Made by a program: the position numbers and the translations under genes. From a virus (lineage: Duplodnaviria > Heunggongvirae > Uroviricota > Caudoviricetes), in the IMG/VR virus record IMGVR_UViG_2531839239_000019: DNA of 4,553 bases; one strand, 5' to 3'. Shown piece after piece: positions 205 to 2,526 of this stretch (positions within the stretch are counted from its first letter, which is position 1; every line of letters starts with the position of its first letter). The notes below the pieces were generated by a model that worked only from the letters and a program-made list of their open reading frames with translations, was not told the origin of the DNA and made no database searches.

Positions 205-978
205 GTGCTTATGTCGTTTCCCCGATTCGGTTTTGAACGATTACCGAATGTTGAAGAATTATGCCAAAATATAGAAAGGATTTACTGCATGAATACCCAA
301 TATTTACAGTATGTTCGTGAGCAACTTATGGCAGCTACTGCTGACTTGAACGGAGCAACGAAAGGCCAGCTCGAAGCCTGGCAGGAGCATGCACAATTTG
401 ATACTGGTACATACAAACGAAAGAAGCCGCGCATTCTGGATGAGGTAACTGGCAGGATGATTACGCTGGATAATCCGCCGATTTCCGGTAAGCAGTCGTA
501 CGCAAAAGGTTCATCCATTGCACTGGTCAGCCAGGTTGAGTTCTCAACCTCGTCATGGCGCCGCGCGGTTCTGTCTCTCGAAGAACATCAGAAAGCGTGG
601 TTGCTGTGGAGTTACAGCGAAAGTGTTCGCTGGGAACATCAGGTCACCATAACGCAGTGGGCATGGAGCGAGTTTAAGACTCTGTTGGGTACCAGGAAAA
701 TTGCAGGTAAGACACTGGAACGTTTGAAGAAGTTGATCTGGCTGGCGGCACAGGATGTGAAGAACGAGCTGGCAGGGCGTAAGACCTATGAATACCAGGA
801 GCTGGCATCACTGGTGGGAGTGACATCAAAAAACTGGTCTGAGACATTTACTGAACGCTGGGTTGCAATGAAACACATTTTTCTACAGCTTGATAGCCAA
901 GCTTTATTGCTTTTAACGAAAACACGTTCAAAACAAAAGACCACATTTTCACAGCAAGATATTGCAAAACTGGATTAA
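205..978 (+). CDS. Putative late-gene antiterminator (Q-like; not lambda-type Q)
   Basis: 257-aa ORF ending about 310 bp upstream of the holin, with terminator-like hairpins in between; this is the position Q occupies in lambdoid phages. The sequence does not resemble lambda Q as I recall it; the size fits the larger roughly 250-aa Q family (e.g. Qin QuuQ). The ORF opens with GTG at 205; the ATG at 211 (GGGGG at 195-199 upstream) is an alternative start. Assignment is positional plus size only. Confidence 0.5.
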   Translation: MLMSFPRFGFERLPNVEELCQNIERIYCMNTQYLQYVREQLMAATADLNGATKGQLEAWQEHAQFDTGTYKRKKPRILDEVTGRMITLDNPPISGKQSYAKGSSIALVSQVEFSTSSWRRAVLSLEEHQKAWLLWSYSESVRWEHQVTITQWAWSEFKTLLGTRKIAGKTLERLKKLIWLAAQDVKNELAGRKTYEYQELASLVGVTSKNWSETFTERWVAMKHIFLQLDSQALLLLTKTRSKQKTTFSQQDIAKLD

Positions 979-1045
979 AAATCATATATTTTATGTAAAT
1001 CTGATATTTTGCCAATGTTGTACGCACTGGCAGTAATCCAAATTC

Positions 1046-1080
1046 AAGCCCGAGGTTTAAAGCCTTGGGCTTTTCTGTTT
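1046..1080 (+). terminator. Hairpin plus U-rich tract (terminator-like element 1, Q-S intergenic)
   Basis: aagcccgagg (1046-1055) pairs with ccttgggctt (1063-1072), a 10-bp stem with one G-U pair and a 7-nt loop, followed by ttctgttt (1073-1080). Confidence 0.35.
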
Positions 1081-1159
1081 CTGAACGGTGAGTAGCCTTC
1101 CAACCTACCCCAGCCAGGGGGTCTTCAGCTGTTGAGTTGATATTGCTTAGCCCTCTGTT

Positions 1160-1185
1160 GCCAGCTACATGCTGGCTTTTTTATT
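1160..1185 (+). terminator. Intrinsic terminator, candidate tR' equivalent upstream of the lysis genes
   Basis: gccagc (1160-1165), loop tacat, gctggc (1171-1176), then a T6 run (1177-1182). GC-rich stem plus T-tract, about 105 bp upstream of the holin start, matching the lambdoid pR'-tR'-S layout. Confidence 0.55.
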
Positions 1186-1287
1186 CCAGGCTTGTGGGGA
1201 GCATCAACTCCGTGCTTTGTCGTTAAATTACCCCGTGAGCCTGATTTCTGACATTTAACGTCCCGGCCTTTTGTCGGCGGCGAAACA

Positions 1288-1605
1288 TTGGCTATTCATA
1301 TGCACGAAAAAGAGAGCCTTGCCGGAGCGTTCTGGCTCGTTTTGCTGATCATCGCAGGTTGGGGCGGTCTGGTCCGCTACCTGATAGATGTGAAGCAGAG
1401 TAAAGCAACGTGGAGTTGGATAAATGCTCTGGCTCAAATAGTGGTATCAGGATTCACCGGTGTTATTGGTGGCCTGATCAGCATCGAAAGTGGATTCAGT
1501 ATTTACATGATTCTCGCGACAGCGGGGATTAGTGGTGCGATGGGTTCGGTTGCACTGACGTACTTCTGGGAACGACTGACAGGGGTGAAAAATGCAAAAT
1601 CTTAA
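1288..1605 (+). CDS. Holin (class I-like, three predicted transmembrane segments)
   Basis: 101-105 aa with three hydrophobic stretches (about residues 11-29, 43-65, 69-94) and a charged C-terminal tail ([11 protein letters not shown]). Its 3' end overlaps the endolysin start by 14 nt. The ORF begins at TTG 1288; an ATG lies at 1300. Not lambda S by sequence, as far as I can recall. Confidence 0.75.
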   Translation: MAIHMHEKESLAGAFWLVLLIIAGWGGLVRYLIDVKQSKATWSWINALAQIVVSGFTGVIGGLISIESGFSIYMILATAGISGAMGSVALTYFWERLTGVKNAKS

Positions 1606-2068
1606 TCCTCAGCGTAAAGCCTTCCTCGATATGTTGGCGTGGTCAGAAGGAACGGATAACGGGCGACAACCGACACGTAACCACGGTTATGATGTTATTG
1701 TTGGCGGCGAACTGTTTACTGATTACTCCGATCACCCTCGCAAACTTGTCACGCTACACCCCAAACTCAAATCAACAGCCGCCGGACGTTATCAGCTTCT
1801 TTCACGCTGGTGGGATGCTTACCGTAAACAGCTTGGTTTGAAAGACTTCTCCCCCAAAAGCCAGGACGCAGTGGCATTGCAGCAGATTAAAGAGCGTGGT
1901 GCTTTACCTATGATTGATCGCGGTGATATCCGTCAGGCAATCGACCGTTGCAGTAATATCTGGGCTTCACTGCCGGGCGCTGGTTATGGTCAGTTCGAGC
2001 ATAAGGCTGACAGCCTGATTGCAAAATTCAAAGAAGCTGGCGGAACGGTCAGAGAGAGTGAGGTATGA
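1592..2068 (+). CDS. R: Endolysin, lambda R-type lytic transglycosylase
   Basis: 158 aa. The translation (…[20 protein letters not shown]…[24 protein letters not shown]…) matches lambda R as I remember it almost throughout, apart from the first few residues. SD AGGGGTG at 1581-1587; start overlaps the holin stop. Confidence 0.93.
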
Positions 2069-2526
2069 GCAGAATAACCGCGATTATCTCCGCTCTGCTC
2101 ATCTGCATCATCGTCTGCCTGTCATGGGCTGTTAATCATTACCGTGATAACGCCATTACCTACAAAGCCCAGCGCGACAAAAATGCCAGAGAACTGAAGC
2201 TGGCGAACGTGGCAATTACTGACATGCAGATGCGTCAGCGTGATGTTGCTGCGCTCGATGCAAAATACACGAAGGAGTTAGCTGATGCGAAAGCTGAAAA
2301 TGATGCTCTGCATGATGATGTTGCCGCTGGTCGTCGTCGGTTGCACATCAAAGCAGTCTGTCAGTCAGTGCGTGAAGCCACCACCGCCTCCGGCGTGGAT
2401 AATGCAGCCTCCCCCCGACTGGCAGACACCGCTGAACGGGATTATTTCACCCTCAGAGAGAGGCTGATCACTATGCAAAAACAACTGGAAGGAACCCAGA
2501 AGTATATTAATGAGCAGTGCAGATAG
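2065..2526 (+). CDS. Rz: Rz, inner-membrane spanin subunit (i-spanin)
   Basis: 153 aa with an N-terminal TM segment ([20 protein letters not shown]) and a coiled-coil-like periplasmic part. ATGA start/stop overlap with R (2065-2068). Near-identical to lambda Rz as recalled. Confidence 0.93.
2285..2467 (+). CDS. Rz1: Rz1, outer-membrane lipoprotein spanin subunit (o-spanin), embedded in Rz in the +1 frame
   Basis: 60 aa with a signal peptide and lipobox (LVVVGC) followed by a proline-rich mature part ([15 protein letters not shown]). Strong SD AAGGAG 8 nt upstream of the ATG. Lies entirely inside Rz in a different frame, as in lambda. Confidence 0.9.

Follow-up and report, generated by a model that had tools for sequence, protein, structure and literature searches.

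The late genes of phage lambda are expressed from a constitutive promoter by Q, pR', which is followed by a -10-like pause element and by a terminator, tR', where a short RNA (the 6S RNA) ends and which is read through in a Q-dependent manner. At lambdoid late promoters, the repeat of the -10 element located downstream of the promoter is the inducer of sigma-70-dependent pausing. Tandem terminators after lambda pR' were reportedly described by Luk and Szybalski in 1983. The Q-binding element (QBE) of lambdoid Q proteins sits between the -35 and the -10 hexamers (PMC4914094). The closest described system is that of phage 82, whose late promoter has a -10-like element nearer to the consensus than that of lambda, with an extended -10, together with GCC at +15-17, a wild-type U at +25 and pauses at +25/+26 (Bird et al., PMC5001585). 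Short terminated late-promoter RNAs have also been cited for phage 82 (PMC7547250), and in the Stx phages the short lysogen RNA StxS arises from the constitutive late promoter and ends at tR' (PMC7547250). StxS shares this arrangement with the locus studied here, differing from it in Q family and in sequence, as well as in being processed from a 258-nt precursor.

The stretch of DNA analysed (4553 nt, hereafter the window) is the late region of a lambdoid prophage, the features of which are collected in Table 1. The gap between Q and the holin had been proposed, by a sequence-only reading, to be the late promoter, Q-utilisation and tR' region of a lambdoid phage, and this is supported in kind by a promoter, by the pause landmarks and by a Q protein with 97% identity to that of phage 82 over 229 aa (record X92588). 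The probability that the late genes of a phage-82-type lambdoid prophage are controlled from 962-1287, by the mechanism set out in the last section, is put at about 0.8. The late-gene switch between Q and the holin is of the phage 82 type, which is well studied (promoter, pause site and terminator), and a back-up terminator is added to it; the main finding is therefore an ordinary one and already known, and a leader element lying in front of the holin is the sole item that may be new.

Copies 100% identical to 979-1287 occur in many E. coli O157:H7 genomes, and 899 out of 5426 complete E. coli genomes contain DNA similar to it. The first late gene encodes a holin of the LydA type, for which related records annotate either of the two starts, both in frame. 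The window was searched for tRNA genes and none was found. Its first part, 1-320, shows 100% identity to a second O157:H7 prophage (LpxR - YlcG - Q), which carries a phage-434-type leader and a class II holin, and the best matches to the remainder begin at 138; the window accordingly resembles a mosaic whose joint falls at the start of Q or within it.

Table 1. Features of the late region, in window positions; +1 is the putative transcription start of pR'.
Feature	Positions	Strand	Remarks
YlcG-like ORF			First gene of the window, followed by Q
Q antiterminator gene, phage 82 family	289-978	+	Pfam PF06323 Phage_antiter_Q, E = 6.8e-94
pR' -35 hexamer, TTGCAA	962-967	+	Promoter scan; within the last codons of Q
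Promoter spacer AACTGGATTAAAAATCA, candidate QBE	968-984	+	
pR' -10 hexamer, TATATT	985-990	+	Promoter scan; 17 bp from the -35
Q-holin gap	979-1287		309 bp
Putative transcription start, +1 = A997, AAA run	997-999	+	7 nt past the -10 hexamer
Putative sigma-70-dependent pause element, extended -10-like TGaTATTTT	1002-1010 (+6 to +14)	+	
GCC (+15-17), AT-rich stretch, predicted pause positions +25/+26 (T1021, A1022)	1011-1022	+	
Hairpin 1, tR' of phage 82 type (t82-like)	1046-1082	+	Stem-loop 1046-1072 + UUUUCUGUUU
Spacer between hairpins	1083-1159	+	Mosaic joints at ~1083 and ~1123
Hairpin 2, second intrinsic terminator	1160-1185 (+164 to +186)	+	GCCAGC-TACAT-GCTGGC + T6; stem end +180
Conserved leader RNA element	1184-1248	+	Long-range helix 1187-1199 / 1231-1243 around ATCA...CGTGCTTTGTCGTTAAAT
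Small hairpin just 5' of the holin starts	1259-1282	+	-11.8 kcal/mol, z = -2.05
Holin, first late gene	1288 (TTG) or 1300 (ATG) to 1605	+	PF16083 Phage_holin_3_3
Endolysin	1592-2068		
Rz, with Rz1 embedded	2065-2526		
bor		minus	After Rz/Rz1
ybcV, ybcW, ylcI			Last genes of the window

The late promoter and its putative pause element

By eye, no convincing sigma-70 promoter had been located in the gap, and the transcription start had been left undefined. Both points can be amended. A promoter scan gives TTGCAA-17-TATATT at 962-990, the -35 hexamer lying 12-17 bases 5' of position 979, and all the Q82-family loci examined (Q identity 59-97%) carry TTGCAA-17-TATAYT where Q ends. A direct repeat follows, in which AAATCATATATTTT (979-992) recurs 18 bp further on as AAATCTGATATTTT (997-1010), the second copy including the pause element, which is present in all Q82-type leaders. 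The start is placed at A997, because no other position suits all four descriptors published for the 82 late promoter: with it, TG falls at 1002-1003, TATTTT at 1005-1010, GCC at 1011-1013 and T at 1021. The Rfam isrJ model, discussed below, begins at 994, 3 nt 5' of this putative +1. Slippage at the 82 late promoter is reportedly the subject, to go by its title, of a 1990 paper by Guo and Roberts, with which the AAA run at 997 would agree. By analogy with phage 82, RNA polymerase is predicted to pause at +25/+26 here. The features by which a Q82-type late control region was recognised, namely overlap with an 82-family Q gene, a sigma-70 promoter with a -10 repeat, GCC at +15-17 with U at +25, and an intrinsic terminator placed after the pause site but before the first late gene, are all found in the window.

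The spacer between the two hexamers is a candidate Q-binding element, both by its location and by its conservation. The string AACTGGATTAAAA within it is also kept in Gifsy-1, where it lies 3' of the anrP stop codon; as it is noncoding there, its conservation cannot be accounted for by the coding of Q.

The window, an E. coli prophage copy, resembles the phage 82 pR' region in its Q gene and in the promoter that overlaps the end of Q; it also has the -10-like repeat with its extended -10, the GCC and the U at their positions (+15-17 and +25) and, further on, an intrinsic terminator whose U-tract is interrupted. The record of phage 82 (X92588) ends at the Q stop codon and the leader was compared by descriptors, its likeness resting on those published and on a string taken to be t500 (a derivative of the phage 82 terminator); full-text literature searches with the pause-element and terminator strings returned no labelled phage 82 sequence. 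Lambda follows the same logic but differs in the Q family, in the pause (+16/17 versus a predicted +25 here) and in the length of the RNA (~194 nt versus a predicted ~80 nt here), and a comparison of lambda DNA with the window gave no similarity. The scan used picks up lambda pR' but misses lambda tR'.

Some further features were observed around the promoter. A modest hairpin (UUGCCA...UGGCAG, 1009-1033, -8.7 kcal/mol, z = -1.26) covers the putative pause site, and IsrJ-type leaders have another one (GUCG...CGAC) at the same place, the position being kept and the sequence not. On the minus strand, TTGCAATATCTTGC (954-967), which overlaps the pR' -35, agrees with TTGC-N6-TTGC, the consensus for CII binding; this is a match to the consensus only, and the phage 434 record labels its corresponding site paQ. 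The strongest promoter-like match of the window, TTGGCA-16-TAAAAT (1015-988, 10/12), is also on the minus strand, directed leftwards into Q and antisense to the initial transcribed region of pR'. Finally, GCCAATGTT (1011-1019, +15 to +23 of the pR' RNA) is a perfect 9-nt complement of AACATTGGC (1284-1292), which lies over the TTG of the holin. This pairing was set aside as chance, about 0.25 such matches being expected in 361 nt and the pairing being lost when either partner is exchanged.

The first hairpin and the predicted short late-promoter RNA

Two hairpins with U-tracts had been noticed in the gap, at 1046-1080 and 1160-1185. Both are present on the + strand (1046-1082 and 1160-1185) beyond chance, and each consists of a G+C-rich stem-loop placed directly before a U-rich tract on the transcribed strand, as is expected of an intrinsic terminator. 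The scan finds 4 terminator-like sites in 940-1300, all on the + strand, against 0.5 +/- 0.8 in shuffled sequences, and 11 in the whole window against 4.1 +/- 1.7. Moreover, G-U pairs in hairpin 1 and in the variants of hairpin 2 are compatible with the + strand only. Hairpin 1 has 12 pairs, 6 of them G-C, and a loop of 3, and is followed by TTTTCTGTTT; folded alone it reaches -18.4 kcal/mol (z = -4.45), a value equalled by 0 of 200 shuffles. A collection of 44 unique Q82-type leaders was obtained from 120 loci (Q identity 59-97%), and 39 of them carry a terminator hairpin with its stem end at +49 to +76. Fifteen different hairpin sequences occur among these 39 leaders, including a series of G-C, G-U and A-U at one and the same pair. 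The phage 434 type of leader has a different and closer terminator, annotated as such.

Since the promoter and the published 82 landmarks lie upstream of it, hairpin 1 is taken as tR', of the t82 type, and, with its stem ending at +76, termination in the U-tract would yield an RNA of ~80-85 nt. Termination at this hairpin is predicted from its structure and from the analogy with phage 82. One of the options offered by the sequence-only reading was that only the second hairpin is tR', the first one ending upstream transcription; hairpin 1 would then do nothing more than close the Q operon, and hairpin 2 would be the real tR' of a promoter situated between the hairpins. Hairpin 1 does lie shortly 3' of the Q stop codon and would also halt unmodified polymerase arriving from upstream. 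However, the promoter, position 997, the -10 repeat and the pause landmarks are all 5' of hairpin 1, and on the + strand nothing passes the promoter scan between the hairpins (1083-1160), nor inside the leader element. Furthermore, IsrJ ends at the equivalent of hairpin 1, and hairpin 2 is also found behind unrelated types of Q, so that this option can hardly be correct. Hairpin 1 is not merely a terminator of upstream transcription.

Hairpin 1 shares AAGCCC...GGGCTTTTCTGT with a string that we take to be t500, in which the upper stem and the loop are redesigned. The same string is found in a primer in PMC7072734, where it bears no t500 label.

The RNA predicted to end at hairpin 1 resembles IsrJ, which is a mapped 74-nt RNA (PMC2330248). 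The Rfam isrJ model (RF01393) aligns over its full length to 994-1073 with 30.4 bits (E = 0.0087), a score below the gathering score of the family, which is 37 bits, so that by this criterion the RNA falls outside the family. Nevertheless, homology with isrJ is supported by synteny and by chimeric intermediates. In Gifsy-1, whose Q is 69% identical, IsrJ (100 bits) lies just 3' of TTGCAA-17-TATATT, and leaders exist in which an IsrJ-type 5' part is joined to a t82-type terminator. With the window, Gifsy-1 shares the promoter, the first 14 nt of the RNA, the two hairpins ending in the terminator and the location downstream of a Q82-family gene; it differs in the internal sequence of the RNA and in having a c4/IsrK-antirepressor module between Q and the promoter. 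This module, which is P1-like, occupies the interval between the Q82-family antQ and its late promoter (locus L004, 1665-2610). As the late promoter behind it is just 5' of IsrJ, IsrJ is the terminated late-promoter RNA of Gifsy-1, the counterpart of the lambda 6S RNA, a link which was not met in the literature examined. When the window was scanned against Rfam with E up to 1, the sub-threshold isrJ was the only match; AgvB, AsxR and STnc100 were not found, and hairpin 2 gave no match.

The ~80-nt RNA running from pR' to t82 could, in addition, be a trans-acting regulator like IsrJ or StxS, an idea that is compatible with its role in the switch. In this respect, IsrJ affects invasion and effector translocation in Salmonella (PMC2330248), StxS regulates rpoS and stx1 (PMC7547250), and the present RNA has its first 14 nt and its arrangement of two hairpins in common with IsrJ. 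Nevertheless, the middle of the RNA is unlike IsrJ and the conservation of its 5' end is already accounted for by the pause element, which makes a regulatory function a possibility on the doubtful side.

The second hairpin in a mosaic leader

Hairpin 2 (stem-loop 1160-1176) has 6 pairs, 5 of them G-C, and a loop of 5, followed by TTTTTT. Folded alone it gives -11.9 kcal/mol (z = -1.87), with 8 of 200 shuffles as good; since this energy is weak by itself, the reality of the hairpin rests on comparative data. Within the window's own family, all stem changes keep the pairing (GCCAGT and GTCAGC, both leading to G-U) and there are changes in the loop as well, while other phages carry quite different stems at this position. 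A terminator-like hairpin with a T-tract at most 22 nt from the conserved helix of the leader element is found in 108 of 118 unique relatives (92%), and 75 different hairpin sequences were counted at this place among them (loci L090-L270). Judging from these comparisons, the position preserves a structure whose sequence can vary freely.

The homology between the window and its relatives breaks at ~1022, 1076, 1083, 1123, 1174, 1197 and 1255, that is, repeatedly along the leader, and the stretch after pR' has been described as a moron insertion site with small-RNA genes (Tree et al., PMC4104026). One locus (L007) carries the equivalent of 1123-1320, including hairpin 2 and the same holin, behind a non-82 antiterminator gene and a small ORF. 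In another (L008), a leader of the Q82 type that has a t82-like terminator precedes a forward 171-aa ORF (1650-2165) with no Pfam match; then come a different stem at the position of hairpin 2 and sequence similar to 1174-1244. Reverse-oriented inserts also occur, one of them a 106-aa putative lipoprotein (locus L058, 2290-2875) and another a DUF3800 protein standing in place of both t82 and hairpin 2 (locus L038, 2235-3398); variants of this last type mean that neither terminator is indispensable in every relative. Taken at the level of sequence, hairpin 1 is part of the Q82/pR' module and hairpin 2 is a separate module tied to the lysis cassette, found also behind unrelated Q genes. The alternative also considered from the sequence, namely that the region encodes two alternative termination points, comes closer to this evidence; the hairpins are, however, not equivalent and belong to different modules.

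A different origin for hairpin 2 has to be considered in such a leader, where it could be the leftover terminator of a lost moron or small-RNA gene, with no present role. The leader is an insertion hot spot, as the joints listed above indicate, in relatives the terminator at this place closes an ORF lying upstream, or else an RNA such as IsrI, and no ORF was found when 1083-1159 was searched. Against a relic stands the fact that a terminator occupies exactly this boundary in 92% of the unique relatives, whatever is upstream; moreover, the 75 stem sequences imply selection for structure rather than for sequence, and the changes within the window's own family all preserve the pairing. On balance, a mere leftover is unlikely. 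Even less probable is a separate small-RNA gene, transcribed from a promoter of its own within 1083-1160 and terminated by hairpin 2, in the manner of STnc100 or PasD. STnc100 and other small RNAs are indeed located between pR' and the holin in related loci, and prophage small RNAs adjoining holin/lysozyme operons have been reported, but 1083-1160 holds neither a + strand promoter-like match nor an Rfam match up to E = 1, and PasA/PasC are on the opposite strand and unrelated in sequence.

We read hairpin 2 instead as a guard terminator, which would catch leak-through from hairpin 1. According to one description, t500 is a derivative of t82 with a stronger hairpin, and in one study its termination efficiency was only 31% in vitro, under conditions that differ from those of the cell. 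Leak-through at t82 is plausible because even this strengthened derivative terminates so incompletely in vitro. Any unmodified polymerase would be halted by a terminator standing immediately in front of the lysis genes, whereas a Q-modified one would pass.

A possible holin leader and the proposed switch as a whole

Directly 3' of hairpin 2, and beginning at its T-tract, 1184-1248 folds into a 13-bp helix (fold z = -3.26). When IMG/VR was scanned for the pattern, using two different anchors, more than 100 unique variants were obtained, in nearly all of which per-sequence folding gave a 12-15-bp long-range helix, around a loop of the form ATCA...GTTG(A/T)TAAAT. The variants fall into at least four sequence families, for instance CAGGCUCACGGG/CCCGUGAAGCCUG, GCCCAGACCCUCGGG/CCCGCAGGGUCUGGGC and the CAGGCUUGUGGGG/CCCCGUGAGCCUG of the window. 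A covariance model, R1, was built from one of the sequence families; it scores 42.3 bits on the window (E = 1.5e-9) and finds the other families too. Since a bulge shifts the register between families, RNAalifold on a MAFFT alignment recovered only 4 pairs, and was replaced by the per-sequence folds and by an alignment guided by the covariance model. With 75 distinct sequences aligned in this way, 93.9% of the helix cells are paired, versus 22-46% when the partners are slid, 3 pairs show compensatory changes and the covariation score exceeds that of all 500 shuffles; as the model itself shaped the alignment and only a few lineages contribute the compensatory changes, this amounts to moderate evidence and not to proof. 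G-U pairs in the helix favour the + strand.

The element is found 19-51 nt upstream of holins of at least five unrelated Pfam families (3_3, 2_1, 2_3, 3_1 and 8), in phages of Escherichia, Salmonella, Klebsiella, Citrobacter, Enterobacter and Raoultella, including Gifsy-2, HK225, mEp237 and Klebsiella and Citrobacter phages, and in most records it is unannotated. The lambda, phage 434 and Gifsy-1 loci examined all lack it. When 80 genome loci with a 16-nt seed were scored, only five exceeded 37 bits, all from Enterobacteriaceae, and the sole other model match was a weak one in Microbacterium (23 bits); most matches to the 16-nt pattern in genome contigs were chance matches in unrelated phyla, which the model dropped. 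No Rfam family matches 1184-1248. As to known identities, PasA/PasC were rejected, their published probes and partial sequences being on the opposite strand and unrelated, and so were an ops (RfaH) site, boxA and a CsrA site in the conserved loop, which were considered by eye only and whose key positions vary between families. The leader sequences of the window are absent from the supplements of Tree 2014, and the HnrS paper states no location with respect to Q or the holin. It is tentatively proposed, at slightly worse than even odds, that 1184-1248 is an undescribed structured "holin leader" RNA, a modular cis-acting element of enterobacterial lambdoid phages. As for its putative role, it can only be guessed at, and might be the shielding or timing of holin translation or the stabilisation of the 5' end of a processed lysis mRNA.

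In Gifsy-1 (locus L004, 3211-3300), after the IsrI terminator, the leader element is missing exactly between two TATTTCC repeats, a clean deletion that is followed by a truncated holin_8-type ORF. In the window, the holin cassette proper begins at the joint at 1255, where homology picks up in loci with other inserts, and its two starts, TTG 1288 and ATG 1300, are preceded by the small hairpin of 1259-1282. This arrangement (1259-1300) recalls that of lambda S, with its dual start and upstream stem-loop.

The working of the region is proposed in the light of published phage 82 work and of homology, from which the start site, the pause, the termination at each hairpin and the Q-dependent read-through are drawn. 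What the sequences themselves show is which elements are present, where they lie, how far they are conserved and that the two hairpins descend from different modules. The sigma-70 promoter pR', overlapping the end of Q, would initiate at A997, after which sigma-70 would rebind at the -10 repeat (+6 to +14) and hold RNA polymerase at +25/+26. If Q is lacking, the polymerase would leave the pause and terminate at hairpin 1, releasing the ~80-nt RNA, and any polymerase that gets past it, or that arrives from another upstream origin, would be stopped ~100 nt further on at hairpin 2, directly before the lysis cassette. If Q is present, it would bind the promoter spacer and load onto the paused complex, and the polymerase thus modified would read through both terminators into the holin, endolysin and spanin genes.

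A widespread prophage region is annotated in this way to the base, with its late promoter and tR' and with the proposed start and pause site. Furthermore, IsrJ of Salmonella is tied to the late-promoter transcript of Q82-family phages and becomes readable as the counterpart of 6S RNA and StxS. The terminators differ in origin and probably also in task, the one serving as a switch and the other as a guard before lethal lysis genes, and such roles would explain why lysogens survive when a moron with a promoter of its own is inserted between pR' and the holin. If the holin-leader RNA is functional, it would represent a control element shared by lysis cassettes across holin families, and a direct handle on how the timing of lysis, or its basal silence, is set.
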